From the IMG/VR virus record IMGVR_UViG_3300044728_000234, positions 1 through 40,960 of that record: a DNA stretch of 40,960 bases; one strand, written 5' to 3'. The notes beneath the pieces are model-generated. The model saw only the letters and a program-made list of their open reading frames with translations, had not been told where the DNA came from and made no database searches. Within the stretch, counting starts at the first letter, position 1, and each line of letters starts with the position of its first letter. The stretch comes from a virus (taxonomy: Duplodnaviria; Caudoviricetes). A program made the translations under genes and the position numbers. This document shows, piece by piece, positions 5,907-25,888 of the stretch.

Positions 5907-7639
5907 CCGGCTGCCCGCATGATGTCGGACTGCATCTGGGCCGCGCCCTCAGGTCCGGCCGGGCTGGTCGCCTGTGCCGCCTGCATGCCGGCCTGGGCCT
6001 GCGCCATCTGCGCCTTGATCTCCTCGTCGCTGCGGATCAGCGACATCGGCACGCCGTTGCGCTTGGCGAGGTAGGGGATGGTGGTCTCGCGCTTGAGCGT
6101 CATGCCGGCGGTGTTGGGGCCGAACAGACCGTCCATCTGGGCGCCCCACTGCATCAGCTCGTTGAGCTCGATCTGGTCCTGCCCGCGCAGCAGGGGCGAG
6201 CGGACGATCAGGCGCAGCATCTTGCCGTCGACCCGCATGCCGATGGCGTCGAGGATGCCCTGCTTCTCGAAGATGTGGATGGTGCGGTTGACGTGGTGGA
6301 CGAGGCACTCGTGGACGATGCGTGAGCCGGGGGCGGATAGGTCGCGGGCGATCTCGGCGAGGCGGGACTGGATCTCCATGGCCGAGCGCGGGGTCTTGCC
6401 GGGGGCGTCGAGCTCGTCGATGAACAGGCCCTTCTTGATGTTGGTGCGCTGGTCGCTGAGGATCAGCTGGGCGACGTCGAACTGGGCGGCCGACTGCAGC
6501 GGCTCGATCTTGCCCTCGCGGCTCTTGGGGATGAAGGTGCCGGGGGCCAGCGTGACGTTCTCGGGGTTGAACACGCCGTCGTCGTCGTAGGTCCAGACGC
6601 CGCCCAGGGCGAGCTCGGCGTTCTCGAGGATCAGCTGGACGGTGAGGTTGCAGGTCTTGATGGCGGGCATGACCAGCATGATGGCGCCGCGGCCCCACGC
6701 ATCGACCCCGACCTTGGACCACCGGGTGGTCGACCACGGGCATGAGCCCATGCCTACAAGGTCGTTCTCCCAGATGATGCCGTCCTTGTTGTATTCGGGG
6801 ATCACCACCAGCTGCTTGTAGCGGTACTCGGTCTTGCTGCTGTTGTCCCACGTCGCGGTGTGGACCTTGAGCTCGCGCCGCGGGTCGGCCTTGAGGTCGC
6901 GCATGAAGCGGTCGGGGAAGGTCGCGACGTTCCTGAACTCGGCGTGGACGTCCTCGATGGGCTGCTTGTCGCGCCACTGGAACCAGCCCTTCACCTTGCC
7001 GCCGGCGCCCGGCAGGATGGCGATGTGGGTCATCGGCACGGCCTTGAAGGTGACCTCGCCGGGGTATTCGCCGGGCTCCTGTGCGAGGTTCATGGTGCCG
7101 ATCGAGAAGTCGATCATGCCTTCGCTGATCTCGGTGCCGAAGTTCGAGTTCTGCCACGCCGTGTGGATCATCTCGGTCAGCATCTGGAGCTTGGACAGGC
7201 CCTCGACGCCCCTGAGGTGTTCGGGCACGTCGTGTCCGTAGGCGAGGCTGAAGATCTCGCCGGCTTCGGGGAAGAAGCCGCTGGTCAGGCGCGAGGCCAG
7301 CCGCGGGACACCGACCACGGCGGTCTCGTCGTAGATGAAGTCGGTGGTGCTCTGGCCGGGTGCGCTGTCGAAGAAGGCTTCGCGGTTGGGCAGCACGAGG
7401 TCGTAGATCGACTGCCACATGGGGATCCACGGCTGGCGGCGGCGCATCGCCTCCTGCTGGTATTTCTCCCACGTCTTGTAGAGGTCCCTGTCGGGCGGGG
7501 TCTTCACGGATGGCGTGATTTCGGTATCGACGTAGTCCTTCTTGGGAGCCGCTTCGGCCTTGCGCCGTGTCCGCTTGGGATAGGGCGGCTGGGGCGTCGG
7601 GCCGGGAGCGCCGTTCTGGGGAACGCGGGTTGCCATCAA
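5903..7639 (-). CDS. Portal / head-tail connector, ~578 aa
   Basis: WQSIYDLVLPNR, IYDETAV, RLASRL, RWSK...WGRG, SAMEIQSR motifs of T7 gp8-like portals. Confidence 0.9.
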   Translation of the reverse strand: MMATRVPQNGAPGPTPQPPYPKRTRRKAEAAPKKDYVDTEITPSVKTPPDRDLYKTWEKYQQEAMRRRQPWIPMWQSIYDLVLPNREAFFDSAPGQSTTDFIYDETAVVGVPRLASRLTSGFFPEAGEIFSLAYGHDVPEHLRGVEGLSKLQMLTEMIHTAWQNSNFGTEISEGMIDFSIGTMNLAQEPGEYPGEVTFKAVPMTHIAILPGAGGKVKGWFQWRDKQPIEDVHAEFRNVATFPDRFMRDLKADPRRELKVHTATWDNSSKTEYRYKQLVVIPEYNKDGIIWENDLVGMGSCPWSTTRWSKVGVDAWGRGAIMLVMPAIKTCNLTVQLILENAELALGGVWTYDDDGVFNPENVTLAPGTFIPKSREGKIEPLQSAAQFDVAQLILSDQRTNIKKGLFIDELDAPGKTPRSAMEIQSRLAEIARDLSAPGSRIVHECLVHHVNRTIHIFEKQGILDAIGMRVDGKMLRLIVRSPLLRGQDQIELNELMQWGAQMDGLFGPNTAGMTLKRETTIPYLAKRNGVPMSLIRSDEEIKAQMAQAQAGMQAAQATSPAGPEGAAQMQSDIMRAAG

Positions 7640-12540: not shown

Positions 12541-13065
12541 TCATGGTGTGCGCGGCTTGGCAGCCTCGTTACTGAACGTGAAAGCGTATGAGGCTTGTGA
12601 TGTGGCAGCTACACGCTGCGATTGTCCAAGCCCTGCTCTCTCCATGAGATCCTGTGCTGCCTCGAGTGCCACGCGTGCATCCTTGTGGCTGCACAGTGCC
12701 TCTAATGTTCGCGTTGCCGTTGTGGCCGCGGTGCCAAGCATTGCCCGTGCGAGCCTTGCAATCAGCTCCTGTCCTGAAGGCGAGGCGATGATGTTGTAGG
12801 CGTTGGCCCTGCTCATCTTCAGTTGTCGCGCCAGCGATGCAACATTCTGGTTCGTGTTGACCCGCAGCGTGATGAGGGTGACGGCTGCGTCACCCAGCTG
12901 GCATCCCGGCATTTGCTGGAGTTGAGCATGAGCAACTGCTGTTGCAGTTGCCATTGGGACGATTGGTGTGTCTGGGCCGGCTGGGCGTTTCAGGCGTCTT
13001 TTCTCGCCATTCCTTCGCGGAGATCTCTTCTCTGCTGGTAGAGTGTCGAGAGCAGGTTGCGCCAT
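12541..13065 (-). CDS. Putative terminase small subunit, 174 aa
   Basis: HTH-like NVASLARQLKMSRANAYNII; C-terminal VALEAAQDLMERAG resembling TerS oligomerisation helices; upstream of terL. Confidence 0.6.
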   Translation of the reverse strand: MAQPALDTLPAEKRSPRRNGEKRRLKRPAGPDTPIVPMATATAVAHAQLQQMPGCQLGDAAVTLITLRVNTNQNVASLARQLKMSRANAYNIIASPSGQELIARLARAMLGTAATTATRTLEALCSHKDARVALEAAQDLMERAGLGQSQRVAATSQASYAFTFSNEAAKPRTP

Positions 13066-13331: not shown

Positions 13332-13480
13332 TCCCCTGTTTTATTTGCTGGGTTCTCGCCCCCGTTGGGGGCGATGCGTTCCTCGCTGCGCTGCGGTACG
13401 CCCAGTCCCGCAGGCGGGCCTGGCTCGGCACAAGGCCTCGGCATGATGCGGGCCTGTGCCCGCGTATGTTGATGAGCGAC

Positions 13481-13963
13481 GCCGTCTCCCGAGAGAGTTC
13501 GGCCCTACCTTGCCCGCGGTGCCCCCAGACCATTGCCATTCGGGTCCATCTCTCATCGAGGCCCTTTGTTCCCGTCGTGCGGGTACGGGTTTGTATGTCG
13601 CCTTGCCGCACGGGCCCAAGAGAGGGCATCCGTCTGGCAGCACCGCAGCGCAGGGTGGATGCGGGTGGCGAGATCGCCGGCCATTGGGGTGCTCTGCCAA
13701 ATCGTTGCGCGCTGCTTCAAGCAACCGGATGTCGCACACTGCGCTGCGCGCTGCCCCGCTACGCGGGTCACCGTATGCAACATCCGCTCGCTTGATGCTG
13801 CCAGCCGGACGCCCTCGGGGCCCTTAACGGCAAGGCGCCATACAAACCCTTACGACCTACGCCGAGAACAAAGGACCTCGCTGAGAGACGGACCCGAACG
13901 ATAGGCATGGCCTAGGGGCACCACAGGCAAGGTAGGTCCGAACTCTCCCTCTTGGGAGACGGC
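13481..13963 (-). repeat. Long imperfect inverted repeat (strand-biased fold-back element)
   Basis: 13481-13642 aligns to the reverse complement of 13796-13963; inner stem 13717-13741/13771-13795; side branch 13645-13715. Confidence 0.92.
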
Positions 13964-14174
13964 TTTCCGAAAGAATCCGACCGATGAGCCCGCCACCTGC
14001 GCTGTGTCAGAGACACGCAGGCGTTGGCCATGCACCGCACATGATCGGACAAAGGCAGCCGAAGATCACACTAACCAGCACCGCCATGACTGCTTGGGCG
14101 AATACGCCCTTCGCATAGCGACCATTCAGCCTCGATCCGACTGTGAACCTTCCATCCAACCTGTGGAGACTACC

Positions 14175-14705
14175 ATGACTGCTTCAACACTGATGACTGT
14201 GCTCGTCTGCGGCGGCCGCGACTACACCGACCGCGAGCGTATCTACAAGCTCCTGACCTTCAACCGCGAGAAGATCGGCGTGATCGTCCACGGCGGAGCA
14301 GCCGGGGCCGACACGCTGGCCGGCGACTGGGCCGCTGCCAACAGCGTCGCCTGCATGCGCGTCCCCGCCGAGTGGGGCAAGTTCGGCAAGAAGGCCGGCT
14401 TCATCCGCAACGAGAAGATGCTCTCGCTCGCCAAGCCCGACCTCGTGGTCGCCTTCCCCGGCGGGGTCGGCACCGCGATGATGGTGCGGCTGGCGAAGCA
14501 GGCCGGCGTGCGGGTGATCGAGGTGCCCGGCCCGACACCCTCCGCTCCCGCGCCTGTGAAGGCGCAGATCGAGGCCAAGAAGCCGGCGATCGCACCGAAG
14601 CGTCCCGTGCGGGCCAACGGCTCGCCCGCCATCCAGCCGTCCCGCGACCAGCTGATCGACCGCAACATCGCAGCCGGCATCGAGCTGGGTGCGATCCCGA
14701 TCTGA
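14175..14705 (+). CDS. SLOG-family protein (YspA/DUF2493-like), 176 aa
   Basis: VLVCGGRDY, IVHGGAAGADTLA, AGFIRNEKML, VVAFPGGVGTAMMV; start at ATG after the repeat RBS. Confidence 0.85.
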   Translation: MTASTLMTVLVCGGRDYTDRERIYKLLTFNREKIGVIVHGGAAGADTLAGDWAAANSVACMRVPAEWGKFGKKAGFIRNEKMLSLAKPDLVVAFPGGVGTAMMVRLAKQAGVRVIEVPGPTPSAPAPVKAQIEAKKPAIAPKRPVRANGSPAIQPSRDQLIDRNIAAGIELGAIPI

Positions 14706-14772
14706 ACGGCGAGGGGCACCCGAGAGGGTGCCCCAGCCTCATCTGACTTCTTTCCAACCTGTGGAGAATGTG

Positions 14773-14958
14773 ATGTTTGACCGCAAGACCTTGGAGCTGT
14801 TCGAGCAGCTCGCCCGCCCGATGCACGCCATCGCCGCGCAGATGCGCGACGACGGCTGCGACCGCGACATGATCGAGCGCATGTACCAGCGCGAGATCAG
14901 GGGCCTCCCGGCCCACCTCCAGCGCGACTTCTGCGCCTACATGGACGAGCCGGGCTAG
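14773..14958 (+). CDS. Hypothetical early protein, 61 aa
   Basis: ATG after repeat motif; genome-typical codon usage. Confidence 0.7.
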   Translation: MFDRKTLELFEQLARPMHAIAAQMRDDGCDRDMIERMYQREIRGLPAHLQRDFCAYMDEPG

Positions 14959-15009: not shown

Positions 15010-15441
15010 ATGCTGACCGTCGACATGATCCTCGCCATGAGCGAGCAAGAGCTGCGTGCCAACTACACCAAGGCCGACCTCGTGGCCTGCATCACCAACG
15101 CCGGGACGTTCCTCGCCCTGGCCGAGGCTGACCTCTGCCAGACAGTGCCCGACGACGATCAGGACATCGACGTCGAGATGGAGAGCGAGGGTGTCGATGC
15201 CTGCACCGACCTGTCCGAGCTTGAGAACCGCTTCGATGCCATCAACGCGCAGGCCAACAACCTGCGCTGGCAGCTCGACATGGCCTCGCGCATGTTCGCC
15301 GAGGCACCTGCCGACCTGCCTGCGGCAGATCGCCAGATGATCGCCGACGAGCTGCAGCACGGCTACGCCGAGCTGGCGCTAGTCGACGCCGAGATCGACG
15401 ACCTCGAGCGCGAGATCGCCGACCACATCAAGTATTCCTGA
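15010..15441 (+). CDS. Highly acidic coiled-coil early protein, 143 aa
   Basis: ATG after repeat motif; Asp/Glu-rich. Confidence 0.75.
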   Translation: MLTVDMILAMSEQELRANYTKADLVACITNAGTFLALAEADLCQTVPDDDQDIDVEMESEGVDACTDLSELENRFDAINAQANNLRWQLDMASRMFAEAPADLPAADRQMIADELQHGYAELALVDAEIDDLEREIADHIKYS

Positions 15442-15461
15442 TCCAACCTGTGGAGACCGAC

Positions 15462-15701
15462 ATGACTGACGACTTCTTCAACTCCTTCCAGCTGCAGCCC
15501 AGCATCAAGCACGACGGTTGGTTCATTTGGTCAGGCGACGTCAAGCTCGAGATCAGGCCGGTGTCTGACGAGCTGCACTGGCTGCTGACCATGCGCGACG
15601 TCGAGGAGCCGCTGGGCGCTGGGACGTGCAGGAGCCGAGGCGGCGCGCTGCGTGCCGCCAGCCGCTGCATGGAGCGTCAGCTCGACGACAACTGCCGCTG
15701 A
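15462..15701 (+). CDS. Hypothetical early protein, 79 aa
   Basis: ATG after repeat motif. Confidence 0.7.
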   Translation: MTDDFFNSFQLQPSIKHDGWFIWSGDVKLEIRPVSDELHWLLTMRDVEEPLGAGTCRSRGGALRAASRCMERQLDDNCR

Positions 15702-16038: not shown

Positions 16039-16122
16039 GGATGAGGGCGGCCTGGCGGCCGCCCAGCCTCGCCCATGCGTTGCGTAGCGTAAGCGTACTC
16101 ACTTCAACCTGTGGAGACTACA

Positions 16123-17226
16123 ATGACGACTGCTATGACCGTTGCCATGACGGAGGCTTACTTCGCCAAGCCTCCGGAGAGCGATATCATGATCATCGCC
16201 GACGGCGTCGAGGTGCTCGCCTCGCCCAACCCGTGGCGCTGGGACAAGGCCTTCGGCCTGTTCATCAACGAGCGCACCGGCGAGGGCCGCCTGCCGACCG
16301 GCGAGAACCGCCCGGTCGACAAGTCGGGCTACAACGCCAGCGTCGGCGAGATCAACGCCGACGTCTACGTCCATCAGGTCGACGCCCGCGAGCGCGAGGG
16401 CGGCATCGGCCTCGAGGGCGACGTCGCCAAGATCATCTACGTCGACGGCGTATCGCGCCGTCTGCGGGGCGACGGCGCACAGTGGAGGCTGGCGCAGAGC
16501 CACCTCAAGCGCGACGAGCAGGCTCGCCGGATGAAGAAGTTTCATCCGTCGATGACCGACGTGAAGCCGGCGGATTTCATCTCCGCCGAGGACCGGGCGA
16601 GGTTCCACGAGGAGGCCAAGAACATCATGGCCCAGCTGTGCAACCTGACCCGGTTCCTGCCGAGGTGCGAGATCATGGCCGTGAAGCAGCCGACGAGGCT
16701 TCTCGAGATGGTCGAGCGCGAGATGTGGTCGATCGAAGGTGCCAATCGCGAGAAGACCGCCGCGATTGCCGCCGAGTACCGCGCCACCGGCGGCGGCGTG
16801 CCCGAGATCCACTCGAGCCAGATCCACCGCCTGCAGCAGCAGAAGCAGGGCTTCAGCTTCCAGTACGCCTACTGCCAGATGCTGTTCGCCGCATGGCGCG
16901 AGAGCTACGACGAGATCATGACCGAGCATGAGGGCCTCGCGACCTCGCTGCCCGGTGCCGAGTTCGACGGCAATACGTGGAACTACGTCAAACTCCGCGA
17001 CCGTGTCGAGCGTCGCAAGAAGCTCGCCAAGGAGACCGACCGGGCGTGGCAGACGCAGAAGGCCATGCTGCTCAAGCTGTCCATGCAGGACTACCACAAG
17101 TGGTTGTATGGACGGACGACCTACGAGCCTCGTCAGGGAGGCGTGGACGCGGTCGAAGCGACGCCACAGGTGGCGCAGCCGATGACGGGTTGGGAGATCG
17201 ACTCCGACCCCGTCGATCGGGAGTAG
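16123..17226 (+). CDS. Hypothetical early protein, 367 aa
   Basis: ATG after repeat motif; strong GC3 bias; no family recognised. Confidence 0.8.
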   Translation: MTTAMTVAMTEAYFAKPPESDIMIIADGVEVLASPNPWRWDKAFGLFINERTGEGRLPTGENRPVDKSGYNASVGEINADVYVHQVDAREREGGIGLEGDVAKIIYVDGVSRRLRGDGAQWRLAQSHLKRDEQARRMKKFHPSMTDVKPADFISAEDRARFHEEAKNIMAQLCNLTRFLPRCEIMAVKQPTRLLEMVEREMWSIEGANREKTAAIAAEYRATGGGVPEIHSSQIHRLQQQKQGFSFQYAYCQMLFAAWRESYDEIMTEHEGLATSLPGAEFDGNTWNYVKLRDRVERRKKLAKETDRAWQTQKAMLLKLSMQDYHKWLYGRTTYEPRQGGVDAVEATPQVAQPMTGWEIDSDPVDRE

Positions 17227-17981: not shown

Positions 17982-18425
17982 ATGTTCAAGGAAATCACCT
18001 GCATCGGCAACCTCGGGAATGATCCCGAGATTCGTCACCTGCCGAGCGGCACCACCGCCGCCAGCTTCTCGGTCGCGGTCAACGACCCGCCCTACACCGA
18101 CAAGTCGTCGGGCGAGATCGTCAAGAACGTGACGTGGCTGCGCGTCGTCGCCTACCAGACCGGCGAGACCGGGCTGGTCACCAACCTGATCCAGAAGTGG
18201 CTGCGCAAGGGCCAGCTGGTCTACGTCAAGGGCGACCCGATCCTGCGCAAGTACACCGACAAGGAGGGTCACGAGCGCACCGCGTTCGAGATCAAGCTCG
18301 GGCCGCAGAGCACCATCAAGATGCTGGGCGGTGAGAAGACCAACGGCCACGCCAAGGCCGAGCCCAACGGGGTTGCGCCGTCGTCCGATCCGGCCGACAT
18401 CAACCTCGGCGATATTCCAATCTGA
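17982..18425 (+). CDS. ssb: Single-stranded DNA-binding protein, 147 aa
   Basis: IGNLGNDPEIR, FSVAVN, TWLRVV, LRKGQLVYVKG; acidic C-terminal GDIPI (DDIPF-like). Confidence 0.93.
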   Translation: MFKEITCIGNLGNDPEIRHLPSGTTAASFSVAVNDPPYTDKSSGEIVKNVTWLRVVAYQTGETGLVTNLIQKWLRKGQLVYVKGDPILRKYTDKEGHERTAFEIKLGPQSTIKMLGGEKTNGHAKAEPNGVAPSSDPADINLGDIPI

Positions 18426-20902: not shown

Positions 20903-22786
20903 ATGACCGTCAGCAGCCCGTGGCGCATCCGCAAGCCCCGCCAGCAGACCAACCTGGTAGCCCTGCTGCAGGCCCGCAGGGCGGCGGCAAGGACGGTGGG
21001 GGTACCGCCGGCAGCCCCACCCCCACCTGTCATCCTGCCGGCGCCACGGCTGCTGGCGCCCACGCCTGCCCCGCAGATAGTGCCGCTGAGCTCGCTGAAG
21101 GACTTCACCGGGTCGGGCAACCGGATCATGGATGTGCGCGACATCGTCGCCTTCCCCGAGACCAACGACACGCTGGCGACCCGCGACGGCAGCCCGATCT
21201 CGGCCCTGCGCTTCGTCGACAGCGAGGGTACTCCCGTGCTGATGGGTGGTCCGGGCACGCCCGGTCCTCCCGGAGAGCCCGGTCCGCCGGGCCCGGCCAG
21301 CACGGTGCCAGGACCGCCCGGTCCCAAGGGTGACACCGGCGATACCGGGCCCACCGGCAGCCAGGGCATACAGGGCATACAGGGCATCCAGGGCGTGCCG
21401 GGAACGCCGGGAGCCACCGGCTCGACCGGACCTGCAGGACCCGGCGTGCCGGTCGGCGGCACTGCCAACCAGGTCCTGAGCAAGATCAACAGCACCGACT
21501 TCAACACCCAGTGGACGACGCCATCAACTGCGACCGGCACGGTGACCAGCGTCGCCGTGGCCTCGGCCAACGGCTTTGCCGGCACGGTGGCGACGCCGAC
21601 CGCGGCCGCCAGCATCACCCTGTCGACCACGGTGAGCGGCCTGCTCAAGGGCAATGCCACGGCGATCTCGGCGGCCACGGCCGGTACCGACTACATGACG
21701 CCGGGCAACGTCTCGGCAGGCTACCAGCCGCTCGACGCCGACCTGACGGCGCTGGCCGGGCTCAACGCCACGGCGGGCCTGGTCGAGCAGACGGCGGCGG
21801 CAGCCTTCACCAAGCGCCTGATCGGCGTTGCCAACACGACCGACATCCCGACGCGGGCCAATGCCGATGCGCGCTACGCGCCGATCTCGATCACCGGCAC
21901 GGTGACCAGTGCCTCGGTGGTCTCGGCCAACGGGCTGGCCGGCACGGTGGCCACTGCCGGGACGACGCCTGCGATCACGCTGTCGACGACCGTGACCGGC
22001 ATGGTCAAGGGCAACGGCACGACGCTGAGCGCCGCGGTTGCCGGCACCGACTACACGACACCGGCCAACGTCACGGCATCGCTCGGCAGCTACCTGCCGC
22101 TCGCCGGCGGCACGCTGACCGGCATTGTCACCGGCACCCGGCATGGCCTGGGAACAGCGCCGCTGGCCAACACCCGGCTGATGATCATGGGCCAGACCAC
22201 GTCGGCCGATTACCTGATCTACGCGATCGACAGTGCCTCTGCCGGGAAGTTCTCGCTGCAGGACAACGGCAATGCCTTCTTTGCCGGAACGATGGGCGCA
22301 CTGAGCTATTCCAACCAGGCCGACGCCAGCAACTATGCCTTCGTCGCCGCCCGCTACTCGCCGGGCTACGGCCGGGCGGTGATGAACACCGGAGGGGCCT
22401 ACGGGCTCGACTGGCAGGTCAACGGCGTCAACGCGATGCGCCTCGATCCGACGGTCATCAATTTCTACCAGCCTGTGGAAGCCGCCGGCTCGGTCAGCCA
22501 GACCGCGGGCGCGACGTTCTATCTCGGGACCACGGCGGGGACCAACACGATCACGGTCACGGCAACGCCGGCCTATACCGCCTACACGGCGGGGGCGATG
22601 TACAACTTCAAGGCTGGCGGCACCAATACCGGGGCGGCGACCATCGCCATCAACGGCATGGCTGCCAAGGCGATCGTCAAGCGGGCCTCGACGGCGCTGG
22701 TCGCCAACGACATCCTGACCGGCGGCATGTATCAGCTGGTCTACGACGGCACCTCGATGCACCTGATGAACCCGGCGGTACCGTAG
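20903..22786 (+). CDS. Collagen-repeat fibre-like protein, 627 aa
   Basis: Gly-X-Y run ~21245-21445; internal ~57-aa duplication; YLPLAGGTLTG and TNTGAATIAING fibre motifs; GAGG RBS. Confidence 0.85.
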   Translation: MTVSSPWRIRKPRQQTNLVALLQARRAAARTVGVPPAAPPPPVILPAPRLLAPTPAPQIVPLSSLKDFTGSGNRIMDVRDIVAFPETNDTLATRDGSPISALRFVDSEGTPVLMGGPGTPGPPGEPGPPGPASTVPGPPGPKGDTGDTGPTGSQGIQGIQGIQGVPGTPGATGSTGPAGPGVPVGGTANQVLSKINSTDFNTQWTTPSTATGTVTSVAVASANGFAGTVATPTAAASITLSTTVSGLLKGNATAISAATAGTDYMTPGNVSAGYQPLDADLTALAGLNATAGLVEQTAAAAFTKRLIGVANTTDIPTRANADARYAPISITGTVTSASVVSANGLAGTVATAGTTPAITLSTTVTGMVKGNGTTLSAAVAGTDYTTPANVTASLGSYLPLAGGTLTGIVTGTRHGLGTAPLANTRLMIMGQTTSADYLIYAIDSASAGKFSLQDNGNAFFAGTMGALSYSNQADASNYAFVAARYSPGYGRAVMNTGGAYGLDWQVNGVNAMRLDPTVINFYQPVEAAGSVSQTAGATFYLGTTAGTNTITVTATPAYTAYTAGAMYNFKAGGTNTGAATIAINGMAAKAIVKRASTALVANDILTGGMYQLVYDGTSMHLMNPAVP

Positions 22787-22834: not shown

Positions 22835-24499
22835 ATGTCCCAGATAATGATGCTCCCGCTGGAGAACCTGTCGATTACGGCGACCAACGCCCGCAAGGAC
22901 CACGTTGCCGACAAGGCGATGATCGCCTCGCTCAAGAGCCAGGGCCTGCTCTACCCGATCCTGGTGGAGAAGATGGATGGTGGGCCGGGCTACGACGTGG
23001 TCGACGGCGCTCGCCGCCTGACCTGTATCCGGAAGGGCATCGAGGATGGCGAGCTCGATGCTGGCGTCTTCGACCGCATACCGTGCCTGGTGGGCAATGG
23101 CGATGGCCGCCATCTTGGCCTCGAGCAGAGCTTGCACGCCAACCTGCACATGAGCATGCACCCGCTCGACGAGTGCGAGGCCATCCTCACCCTGTCGAAG
23201 ATGGGCGAGATGGGCGACGACATCGGCCTGCGCTTCGGCCAGGACGGGAAGTGGGTCGACCAGCGCGTCAAGCTGGCAAACCTCGCCGACGAGGTGAAGG
23301 CACTGTTCCGTGACGGCACGATCAGCCTGGGCATGGCGATGAAGTTCACCCTGGGCGACCACGCCAGGCAAAGGGCGTTCCTGAAGCAGCACCACAAGGA
23401 AGGCTTCACCGCCCACATGATCGAGCCGGCGATGACCGACAAGTGGGTGAGCTACGAGCACGTCAACTTCGACCTCGACCAGTACGACGGCCCGCAGGAG
23501 CGCGACCTGTTCGGCGAGAACATCTGGCTGCTCGACCGCAAGAAGGTGAAGGAGCTGCAGGACAAGTGGGCAGCCGAGGAGGTCGCCGCACTGGAGAAGG
23601 AAGGCTACGACAAGGTCGAGATCCTCGATCGCGAGGACTGGCAGACCCTGCAGAACACCGTCGAGGTCACCGGCAAGATCGGCAAGGAGGACCGGGCGAG
23701 GCTGAGGTGCTTCCTCAAGGCCGACCTGCATGGCTTCATCACGGTCCACAAGAACCGGATCGGCCGCAAGGCGGTCGACGACAAGGGCAAGATCAAGAAG
23801 AAGGTGCACTCGGCCGACGAGACGCCGGCTGAGAACGTCAAGCCGATGCTGTGCACCGAGCTCACCGTCGCCCAGCAGGAGATCGTCAACGCGCTGGCCT
23901 CGAGCAGCCTGTTCGCCCAGGTCATGGAGGGTGACGACCTGCTGGCCGAGTACCTGGTCATTTCCAACCAGTTCGGCGGCCAGTGGACGGAGCAAGCCGC
24001 GGCGCTGCGCCATAACGGCACGGTCAATCGCTGGGAGCGCCTGAACAGGGACTATCCCAACGAGCAGCTGATTAACGGAGCCGAGATCGGGCCGTGGGAC
24101 GAGAACGATCCCAAGGTCGTGACCTTCGCCGACTATCTCGACATGACCCATGAGCGTCGCCAGGAACTGTTCCGGGCTGCCGTAGCGTCGATGATCTTCG
24201 TGCCCTACGGCCAGCAGACGACCAGGCTGAAGGGTGCCCCGGAGCTGGCCAAGTACGACTGGCTGAAGCCGGGCGGCGACTTCTTCAAGCGCTACCGGAC
24301 CGATCAGCTGATCGACTACCGCCGGCGCTCGGGCGACAAGGAGGCGGGCAAGACTGCCAAGCCCAAATCCGCACACGTCGCCGACTGCGTAGTCGCAGCC
24401 GACGGGCCGCATGCCTTCAAGCTCAACCTCTACCCGAAGAAGATCCAGACGGAGCCGAAGCGGGAGAAGAAGATGACGGGCGGCGTTCCCGAAGCCTAG
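22835..24499 (+). CDS. parB: ParB/RepB/Spo0J-like protein with long C-terminal extension, 554 aa
   Basis: MIASLKSQGLLYPILV, VVDGARRL, SLHANL, MHPLDE, IGLRFG...VDQRVKLANL; GGAGG RBS. Confidence 0.8.
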   Translation: MSQIMMLPLENLSITATNARKDHVADKAMIASLKSQGLLYPILVEKMDGGPGYDVVDGARRLTCIRKGIEDGELDAGVFDRIPCLVGNGDGRHLGLEQSLHANLHMSMHPLDECEAILTLSKMGEMGDDIGLRFGQDGKWVDQRVKLANLADEVKALFRDGTISLGMAMKFTLGDHARQRAFLKQHHKEGFTAHMIEPAMTDKWVSYEHVNFDLDQYDGPQERDLFGENIWLLDRKKVKELQDKWAAEEVAALEKEGYDKVEILDREDWQTLQNTVEVTGKIGKEDRARLRCFLKADLHGFITVHKNRIGRKAVDDKGKIKKKVHSADETPAENVKPMLCTELTVAQQEIVNALASSSLFAQVMEGDDLLAEYLVISNQFGGQWTEQAAALRHNGTVNRWERLNRDYPNEQLINGAEIGPWDENDPKVVTFADYLDMTHERRQELFRAAVASMIFVPYGQQTTRLKGAPELAKYDWLKPGGDFFKRYRTDQLIDYRRRSGDKEAGKTAKPKSAHVADCVVAADGPHAFKLNLYPKKIQTEPKREKKMTGGVPEA

Positions 24500-24953
24500 C
24501 CGCCATCTCGAGACGGCGCATGGCGATCTGGACGACGGCGAGCTTGTCGCGCCGCCGCTCGAGGTCGTCATTGGCCATCTTGCACAGCGCACCGGGCGTC
24601 GGCAGCTTGTGCCACGTCTCGGTCGACAGGCAGCGCACCATCGACTTGCGCAGCAGGTCGGGGGGATACTGCACCATCACCATGACATAGCCGGCAGCGA
24701 CGTCAGGCTCGGGTTTCCTGCACCCGATTATTCTCACCACCTGTAAAAGGATAATCTGGGCCTGCACCTCGCTGATCGGCCTGAGGTGTTCACGTATCGC
24801 CTCGGCCAGCATCGGAAGCTGGTGGTCCTGCGGGCTTGGCTCGATGTCGAGCAGCCTTGGCACCCTTGAGACGGCGTCGGCGTGTGCGAGCAAGTTTAGC
24901 CACAGCACGTTTCTCCCGGGCACGTTCGGTGTTGACGGTGTGAGCTCGTTCAA
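24423..24953 (-). CDS. Hypothetical protein, possibly replication/helicase-loader related, ~176 aa
   Basis: TTG start; QYPPDLL...WHKLPTPG helical pattern; overlaps both neighbours. Confidence 0.5.
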   Translation of the reverse strand: MNELTPSTPNVPGRNVLWLNLLAHADAVSRVPRLLDIEPSPQDHQLPMLAEAIREHLRPISEVQAQIILLQVVRIIGCRKPEPDVAAGYVMVMVQYPPDLLRKSMVRCLSTETWHKLPTPGALCKMANDDLERRRDKLAVVQIAMRRLEMAARLRERRPSSSSPASAPSGSSSGRG

Positions 24954-25416
24954 TGTCTGCCCCCTTTGTGATCCAGTAGTGACCGATCAGGATTGCCTCG
25001 GCCGGTCCATCGGTCAGGGGCTCGCCCTTCAGGCCGGGATAGAGCAGGCGGGCGTGGTAGATCGCCGCCGCCTTGTCCGGTCCCAGGTCGAGCGCCTTCT
25101 TCCAGACCCGTGGATGCACGACATGGATCGAGGCTAGGGATCGCAAGGACAGCACCAGGCCGTAGTTGAGGAAGCTGGTGGCGGTTGCGACGGAGGACTG
25201 ACCGGGCATCGGCGTCTGGTACTCGGTAACAACTGCATAGGCTTCATAGGCCATGGCGAGCTTCTTCAGCTCGAGCACGTCGACCTGCTTCCTGGGCTTG
25301 CCGGTAAGCGACAGGCTGGTCTTCCACACCGGCAGCGGGCCCCACTCCATCAGGCCGCCATCATCGAACAGGGCGTAGCCGCCCTTCAGGCCGGGGTCGA
25401 TGGCGATCAGCCTCAT
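24790..25416 (-). CDS. RuvC-like Holliday junction resolvase, ~208 aa
   Basis: Start ATG 25416 (ATGA overlap); IAIDPGLKGG, VVTE, F..YG, VHPRVWKK, DGPAEAILI. Confidence 0.8.
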   Translation of the reverse strand: MRLIAIDPGLKGGYALFDDGGLMEWGPLPVWKTSLSLTGKPRKQVDVLELKKLAMAYEAYAVVTEYQTPMPGQSSVATATSFLNYGLVLSLRSLASIHVVHPRVWKKALDLGPDKAAAIYHARLLYPGLKGEPLTDGPAEAILIGHYWITKGADIERAHTVNTERAREKRAVAKLARTRRRRLKGAKAARHRAKPAGPPASDAGRGDT

Positions 25417-25625
25417 TGCTTCCTCAGTGCGACCTTCAGCCCGAGGGCGCGTGCCCAGCGGTCGAGGTTGAGCGCGGTCGGGTTGCGCCGGCGGCTCTCC
25501 CACTTGGCGACCATGCGCTCGCTGACACCGAGGCGTTCCTCGAGGTCACGCTGGCTCATGCCGAGGTGTTCGCGACGCTCGATCAGTTCGCCGATGCGAC
25601 GGTTGAACGGTTCGGTGTTACTCAT
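25413..25625 (-). CDS. XRE/Cro-family HTH regulator, 70 aa
   Basis: RREHLGMSQRDLEERLGVSERMVAKWESRRRNP; start ATG 25625. Confidence 0.85.
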   Translation of the reverse strand: MSNTEPFNRRIGELIERREHLGMSQRDLEERLGVSERMVAKWESRRRNPTALNLDRWARALGLKVALRKQ

Positions 25626-25660
25626 GGTGTACTTATGTCCCTGCTGTAGTATGCTGAAGT

Positions 25661-25888
25661 ATGGCACAAAAGGGAATAGGGTCACCTGACATCTACTGCA
25701 CCGAGGTTCAGAAGAAAGCCCACAACACCGCTTGGTTGGCCCACAGGCAGCCTTTTCCTTGCGAGGTATGTGGAGCGACAAAGACCGTGCGGCATCACGA
25801 CGATTACAGCAGGCCACTAGACATTCGCTGGCTCTGTCATCCGTGTCACCGTGCATGGCACAAAAGTAACAAAGCCTCGAACAGGTAA
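25661..25888 (+). CDS. Small HNH/zinc-finger protein, 75 aa
   Basis: CEVCG...HHDDYSRPLDIRWLCHPCHRAWH; lower GC. Confidence 0.7.
   Translation: MAQKGIGSPDIYCTEVQKKAHNTAWLAHRQPFPCEVCGATKTVRHHDDYSRPLDIRWLCHPCHRAWHKSNKASNR

Follow-up and report, generated by a model that had tools for sequence, protein, structure and literature searches.

Fold-backs in which one DNA strand is the functional one have been described for the Frpo/ssi elements of plasmids (PMC11541004), the hairpin promoters of phage N4 (PMC13492108, PMC13037366), single-strand origins of the ssoA type (PMC4595007, PMC10378824) and attC sites (PMC5027507). The structure of the N4 promoter hairpin depends on supercoiling and on the protein that binds single-stranded DNA (SSB; PMC13492108). 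Among GCNNNGC loops only those of the GNA type form DNA mini-hairpins, the tested RNA counterpart being much less stable, and GNA mini-hairpins are present at the G4, RSF1010 ssiA and N4 start sites (PMC13037366). Here we report a fold-back of about 480 nt, referred to as the rod, at positions 13481-13963 of IMG/VR virus record IMGVR_UViG_3300044728_000234 (Duplodnaviria; Caudoviricetes), the whole 40,960-nt stretch analysed being called the window. The window is one complete 41-kb podovirus record bounded by direct terminal repeats. Its minus strand carries the late genes (TerS, TerL, portal, capsid, tail), its plus strand the early genes, and the rod lies in the gap between the diverging early and late gene arms. 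The minus strand is thus both the template strand for the early genes and the TerS-sense strand. The element is real, selected and family-wide, and is apparently undescribed; its mechanism is inferred.

Alignment of the main arms (13481-13642 with 13796-13963) gave 135 matches, 24 mismatches and 12 gap columns, and 20 of 25 positions match in the inner stem. The parts of the rod and the adjoining blocks are as follows (L numbers denote loci of the family survey described below).

13796..13963, minus strand: 5' arm, serving as template where the early (plus-strand) unit begins and the better conserved of the two arms among close relatives.
13481..13642, minus strand: 3' arm of the rod, a degenerate mirror copy with Watson-Crick, G-T and G-A appositions and a more variable sequence.
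13717..13795, minus strand: inner stem (13717-13741 / 13771-13795) and apex.
13755..13767, minus strand: apex mini-hairpin with a C-GTA-G triloop of the GCGNAGC type (PMC13037366).
13741..13751, minus strand: second apex mini-hairpin with a C-GCA-G triloop, an alternative local fold since it overlaps the end of the inner stem.
13645..13715, minus strand: side branch, long in the window and L009 and a short hairpin in L171, L014 and L170.
13347..13482, minus strand: block of 136 nt immediately downstream of the rod, shared at 94% identity with L002, the rod of which is unrelated; a third GCGNAGC motif lies inside it at 13385-13391.
14050..14107, no strand assigned: conserved non-coding sequence that follows the rod and precedes the first early open reading frame (ORF), 91% identical in L009.

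Folding energies were computed on 13471-13973 for both strands using RNA and DNA parameters, with 100 shuffles each. The minus strand gave -360.5 (z -21.5) with RNA parameters and -207.7 (z -22.1) with DNA parameters, the corresponding plus-strand values being -315 (z -16.0) and -173.7 (z -14.0), and none of the 100 shuffles matched the native fold for any strand or parameter set. A score counting Watson-Crick pairs only reached 195.5 at the element versus at most 62 elsewhere in the genome (681 centres), confirming the fold-back proposed in the initial annotation as real and unique in the genome. The same annotation had predicted that the minus strand would be preferred when both strands were folded; it is indeed the more stable with both parameter sets, but the size of the gap is unexceptional, as two other 500-nt segments of the genome are more asymmetric in the same direction, and the strand signal therefore rests on the identities of the mismatches. 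All 16 isolated main-stem mismatches (those with one Watson-Crick pair on each side, six at 13643-13664 being excluded as aligner overrun) contain G on the minus strand, with 9 G-T, 7 G-A and no C-type apposition, which upholds the claim that the mismatches favour minus-strand folding and corrects its count of 8 G-T and 6 G-A. The longest perfect run within the rod is 11 bp; this, together with homologous rods carrying compensatory changes in independent contigs, shows that the fold-back is not an assembly artefact, a possibility that had been raised with the original claim.

A homologous rod is found in L009 (84% identical over 509 nt, the shared coding genes being mostly 68-81% identical) and others in L171, L014 and L170. 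In a five-way alignment compensatory change was seen at 59 of the 193 predicted pairs, a figure to which no significance value is attached because only five related sequences are available. Among these close relatives the sequence of the 5' arm is the better conserved, with the 3' arm changing in step. L005 carries, at the corresponding location, a rod that differs for the most part, and L002, the TerL of which is identical by tblastn, has an unrelated, shorter rod at 6037-6339 and different first early genes. As L002 nevertheless shares the adjoining 136-nt block, the control region appears to have been swapped as a module. A 17-nt core pattern was tried and rejected, its 12 matches consisting of two known homologues and 10 sites without a fold-back.

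In order to survey the wider family, loci were fetched by TerL and TerS alignments and only Watson-Crick matches counted towards the fold-back score. A TerS match was present in 160 of the 254 loci, and 111 of these had enough upstream sequence (L170 fell just under the cut); the 111 include the window, the cultured Pelagibacter phage Hodr (OQ414635) and some duplicate contigs. An estimated 5,400 IMG/VR stretches match the TerL pattern and 3,100 the TerS pattern. Rods scoring at least 60 were present at the early/late divergence, upstream of TerS, at 58 of the 111 loci (46 of them at least 100), compared with one of 93 downstream control regions (maximum 62), and their arms end at most about 620 nt from TerS. 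The 58 rod loci collapse to 26 clusters without shared BLAST similarity (HTVC010P removed), which are not fully independent since they share a gene 1 family; their GC content ranges from 34 to 66%, and predicted rods across the family are 250-900 nt long with 80-300 Watson-Crick pairs per stem. Hodr has one rod, at the divergence, which scores 229.5 against 44 for the best distant site. Seven more distant cultured phages (MEP301, VA-RY-3, Ss1, SI2, Mwe-JY08, RHph_TM3_14A and BcepC6B) yielded no rod in their scanned stretches; a fold-back of BcepC6B scoring 73 is located inside a gene. Even where no long rod is present, the sequence upstream of TerS is enriched in C-GNA-G hairpins.

HTVC010P was set aside: its divergence scores 84.5, but it has no TerS match and no late-strand preference, and neither the TerL nor the TerS search matched it. 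The divergence is AT-rich and roughly symmetric with, by eye, an ORF on each side, and it is counted in the tallies of 27 representatives below and left out of those of 26. In its record (L177) a ~90-codon unannotated ORF seems, by eye, to span the record junction (34636-34892/1-300). Three further observations were made during the survey. In L192 and L195, neither of which has a long rod, the 1.5 kb upstream of TerS contains 26 and 21 short perfect hairpins, respectively, several loops of which read as GNA on the early strand. Among 80 contigs counted by hand, ends within 300 nt of TerS lay upstream in 11 and downstream in 4, a weak difference, and such ends may be either the genome end or an assembly break at the hairpin. 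A 358-nt contig with a related element (25 differences in 228 nt) occurs in two equal-size soil metatranscriptome rows at a depth of 4.9; the rows are probably one data set and strand and transcription are not readable from them, and the contig was excluded as evidence. Four further DNA runs yielded fragments at most.

Across the family the more stable strand is the early template strand in 25 (DNA parameters) or 26 (RNA parameters) of 27 representatives. Isolated appositions on the late strand of the 26 representatives showed G-T:A-C at 97:18, G-G:C-C at 23:3, T-T:A-A at 53:18 and G-A:C-T at 53:56, the respective values in 759 chance fold-backs within late genes being 300:255, 175:102, 139:200 and 380:196. 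The longest perfect run does not exceed 18 bp in any of the 26 and is shorter than expected from random placement in 21. The mismatch bias and the short perfect runs indicate that the repeat is maintained, and that its interruptions and one-sidedness are maintained with it. Selection for the minus (TerS-sense) strand to fold is supported by the covariation and by the same bias over 26 sequence-distinct elements, so that the structural conservation anticipated in the initial annotation is borne out. An excess of G-A over C-T was considered as proof of DNA when it stood at 30:17 in a first small set; it was lost in the 26-27 clusters (per-site ratio 1.42, p 0.06 with 27 representatives) and against controls, and was dropped as a family-wide argument.

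The 5' arm is, in 23 of the 26 representatives, the antisense of the leader, ribosome-binding site (RBS) and first 50-323 coding bases of early gene 1; where the arm overlaps the gene, the ATG of gene 1 and the inner end of the stem are 48-132 nt apart. The 3' arm of these distant members copies that leader, RBS and gene start at 70-89% identity with 5-42 frameshifting indels, and is consequently not a gene; the mirror arm tracks the gene 1 sequence of its own lineage. The exceptions are the window and its clade, L002 and L181, in which the rod covers only non-coding sequence. Several members have TerS starting directly behind the arm. Gene 1 was called in 57 elements, and in at least 36 of these it falls into one ~150-aa family; its product is predicted to be a long helical hairpin (predicted local distance difference test score, pLDDT, 83), with no convincing Pfam, PHROG or Atlas match and no PDB match at E of 0.001 or below; an example is L117 3506-3994, with 22 aligned relatives. 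A separately folded early-leader RNA was also considered and rejected, the consensus being weak (-45 kcal/mol over 347 columns).

We propose, with a probability of about 0.38, that the rod is a one-sided fold-back, likely of DNA, in which a non-coding mirror pairs with the early template to form a structure-dependent promoter or switch for the host RNA polymerase. The region would open through negative supercoiling, or through end resection by a YqaJ-type or host exonuclease, whereupon the late strand would snap into the rod and the early strand, whose own mirror appositions are A-C, C-C and C-T, would stay open and SSB-bound. The 3' arm would then stand in for the non-template strand, so that the polymerase meets a duplex over the early start site and the first gene, as at Frpo and, in logic, at the template-strand hairpin promoters of N4. 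The regular interruptions, with no perfect run above 18 bp, may prevent palindrome cutting and recombination.

Whether the folded molecule is DNA or RNA is central to this proposal, and we consider DNA probable and RNA rather unlikely. Where the 5' arm carries G, the opposing base gives G-T (29), G-A (29) and G-G (23) about equally, as DNA energies predict (2.86, 2.99 and 2.33) and RNA energies do not (1.33, 5.44 and 2.89). Deviance of the late-strand fit was 44.5 with DNA energies versus 51.5 with RNA energies, DNA being better in 294 of 300 bootstraps, and the best two-term model combined early-strand RNA avoidance with late-strand DNA (deviance 23.8; 151 of 200 bootstraps); these fits have 12 cells each, and several models were tried. 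C-GNA-G triloop hairpins occur at the late-strand apices of 9 of the 26 representatives and at none on the early strand (8 in 3.4 kb of apices versus 3 in 51 kb of control), and neither GNRA nor UNCG tetraloops were found at late-strand apices.

Several results weigh against the proposed DNA switch. Of the one-term models, the best fit comes from the early strand avoiding RNA-type pairing (deviance 27.1), the excess of T-T over A-A leans to RNA, as does G-A not exceeding C-T family-wide, and a strong G-A:C-T bias, the cleanest discriminator between DNA and RNA, is confined to the clade of the window itself, which is not independent. In this clade the rod ends about 200 nt before the first ORF, which in the window is the SLOG gene. 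As 53 of the 111 loci have no long rod, the rod must be dispensable or replaceable. The idea that the 3' arm is the better carrier of a sigma-70 promoter was not supported by a positioned scan, in which it was better than the early sense in 11 of 23 cases and worse in 9 (p 0.40); an unpositioned scan was borderline (13 versus 8 of 26, p 0.05), the consensus may not be that of the host, so that a divergent promoter may have been missed, and single good cases exist (Hodr). The route to ssDNA in a double-stranded DNA (dsDNA) phage is itself something we infer.

The RNA features just listed would be accommodated by a self-masked antisense RNA, an explanation that we regard as doubtful, in which the late transcript starts inside or beyond early gene 1 and has a leader antisense to the early mRNA, the mirror arm shielding the leader or timing its release and the interruptions limiting RNase III cleavage. 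The family-wide preferences for G-U and G-G, for U-U over A-A and the near equality of G-A and C-U follow RNA energies, the early-strand avoidance of RNA pairing is the best single term, and TerS directly follows the arm in several members; but G sites show no preference for G-T over G-A or G-G, the apex loops are DNA-type triloops on a late strand without GNRA or UNCG, Rfam gives no match, and the transcript is only predicted. Less probable still is a single-strand origin or self-priming end. In one version, host RNA polymerase or a primosome would prime the displaced or 3'-terminal late strand, once folded, at the apex mini-hairpins; in the other, the 3' end of that strand would fold onto itself for DNA polymerase to elongate, a route that would also account for the origin of the mirror copy. 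Such a role would suit the scanned proteins, among which no primase, helicase or polymerase was matched, and mini-hairpins that mark known priming sites, and sso function can rest on structure and not sequence (PMC4595007); the contig ends near TerS (11 of 80 upstream versus 4 downstream) point weakly the same way but are explicable technically as breaks at hairpins. Against it, no more than 4 of 27 apices contain CS-6, the scanned proteins gave no match to a rolling-circle initiator, priming needs no rod over the early RBS and gene start, and Hodr and L108 encode DnaT-domain initiator-like proteins, which suggests a separate origin.

Two other explanations appear improbable. A protective fold, which would shield ssDNA transiently laid bare across the first early gene against nucleases, RecA/SOS or ssDNA-sensing defence, would fit the presence of SSB, DUF932 or ArdC in the early arm and the dense short-hairpin arrays in the same region of the rod-less L192 and L195, but it leaves unexplained the selection against folding of the other strand and the fixed apex-to-ATG distance, and the GNA-type loops of L192 and L195 are on the early strand. 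The least probable of all is that a promoter-leader was duplicated in inverted orientation, as divergent twin promoters, and is decaying under strand-biased mutation. HTVC010P, with its symmetric AT-rich divergence (84.5) and no late-strand preference, resembles what this would produce, and C-to-T and A-to-G changes on one strand would yield G-T appositions; it is opposed by the compensatory changes at 59 of 193 pairs, by the 23:3 ratio of G-G to C-C, which is not a deamination product, by perfect runs shorter than random in 21 of 26 and by a mirror that tracks gene 1 of its own lineage.

The genes of the window that bear on these readings are given below.

12541..13065 (start may be 12954), minus strand: TerS, head of the late arm (phrog_2538, E 1.9e-8; P0002).
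14175..14705, plus strand: YspA/SLOG-family protein, first early gene in the window (PF10686).
16111..17226, plus strand: possible distant homologue of the ~150-aa gene 1 over which the rod extends in distant relatives (hhalign probability 2.9, E 0.015; weak), not retrieved as such by hmmsearch.
17982..18425, plus strand: SSB (PF00436), candidate partner of the rod.

The scanned proteins include SSB, DUF932, a ParB-like protein, YqaJ and a Holliday-junction resolvase, to which Hodr adds ArdC and the DnaT-domain protein; no RNA polymerase, DNA polymerase, primase or helicase was matched among the scanned proteins, many small ORFs having no assignment. GC skew located no origin in the window, and a promoter/terminator consensus scan of the window found none. 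A 28-nt leader/RBS motif precedes successive early genes in four copies (14154-14181, 14752-14779, 15441-15468 and 16102-16129), and by eye L002 and L009 have leaders resembling it. The large gene soon after gene 1 is ArdC in Hodr (L173; 13573-14457) and DUF932 in L125 (5379-6263), L108 (3069-4001) and L157 (4483-5352); DUF932 is also in the early arm of the window, and DUF4326 is in L005 and L002. A collagen-repeat, tail-fibre-like gene (20903-22786, plus strand) stands in the early arm in the opposite sense to the other structural genes, and a minus-strand island in the same arm (24423-25856) encodes a helix-turn-helix regulator, a Holliday-junction resolvase and an unassigned 129-aa ORF which, by eye, we take to resemble helicase-loader inhibitors.

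The phages examined show no match for an RNA polymerase, DNA polymerase or primase of their own, and the rod bears on how their expression starts and is timed. We put forward tentatively the broader view that widespread dsDNA podoviruses, abundant in the sea and present in soil, may start infection or replication via a programmed single-stranded state, in which a one-sided cruciform switch, re-copied as gene 1 changes, would rebuild the template duplex from a gene 1 mirror, leave the other strand open and replace a phage RNA polymerase or primase. If true, the promoter or origin logic of single strands would have been carried from plasmids into dsDNA tailed phages; if the molecule is RNA, it would be a very long, uncatalogued self-masking antisense rod. 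Since cultured Hodr and its host Pelagibacter HTCC1062 exist, the DNA and RNA readings are directly testable.

The initial annotation had suggested a structure selected in single-stranded nucleic acid, likening it to ssoA, Frpo and attC; folding of the minus strand is supported, but marks specific to ssoA or Frpo were not found. Like ssoA, the rod is a long and imperfect fold-back, specific to one strand, that extends over a few hundred nt and branches at its apex (PMC4595007, PMC10378824). It differs in that CS-6, TAGCG(A/T) as defined in PMC10378824, is absent from the window, where the apex hexamer taken as its mark reads TAGCGG; TAGCG(A/T) is present in 4 of 27 apices (4 late-strand and 2 early-strand matches), and overlap with coding sequence is not described for ssoA in the available parts of PMC4595007 and PMC10378824. 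No rolling-circle Rep was matched among the scanned proteins, many small ORFs having no assignment. The attC sites are short cassette recombination sites, whereas the element here is single-copy and much longer; there is no integrase among the scanned proteins, and attC R/L boxes were not searched for. What is shared is an imperfect inverted repeat with unpaired features that make one strand functional (PMC5027507). No catalogued structured RNA was found in the window with Rfam 15 (no match at gathering score; best local E 3.9). No description of such an element was found in the literature searched, subscription papers and supplements being outside its scope: Hodr is absent from it, including the available part of PMC11094077, 'inverted repeat' is absent from that of PMC8477408 on HTVC010P-type phages, and 'hairpin' and 'inverted' are absent from that of PMC10504331 on Skadi.

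The closer parallels are N4 and Frpo/ssi. N4 is likewise a dsDNA podovirus with a template-strand hairpin capped by a GNA triloop (PMC13492108, PMC13037366), and GNA-triloop hairpins on the template strand are found here, two of them in the window apex. The N4 stem is 5 bp and is used by a virion RNA polymerase of ~3,500 aa, in contrast to the 80-300 Watson-Crick pairs and GNA caps in 9 of 26 representatives seen here; the 1684-aa and 1235-aa virion proteins of the window gave no polymerase match in Pfam or NCBIfam, nor did the former among PDB sequences. In sequence, blastn against 72,556 plasmids gave one 50-nt chance-level match (E 0.05) in the search for similarity to Frpo/ssi, and against phages chance-level matches only. 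Frpo/ssi belong to conjugative plasmid leading regions and lack the setting of a dsDNA tailed phage with no known single-stranded entry, and the rod is 250-900 nt long and usually lies over the RBS and coding start of the first gene; neither a conserved -35/-10 nor the positioned sigma-70 promoter expected of Frpo was found. What Frpo/ssi and the rod have in common is a strand-specific ssDNA fold-back that mimics a duplex on the template strand upstream of early genes, with neighbours that include SSB and anti-defence-type genes (PMC11541004). The element is not shown to be either an Frpo or an N4-type promoter, and the likeliest reading, by analogy, is that it works like them.
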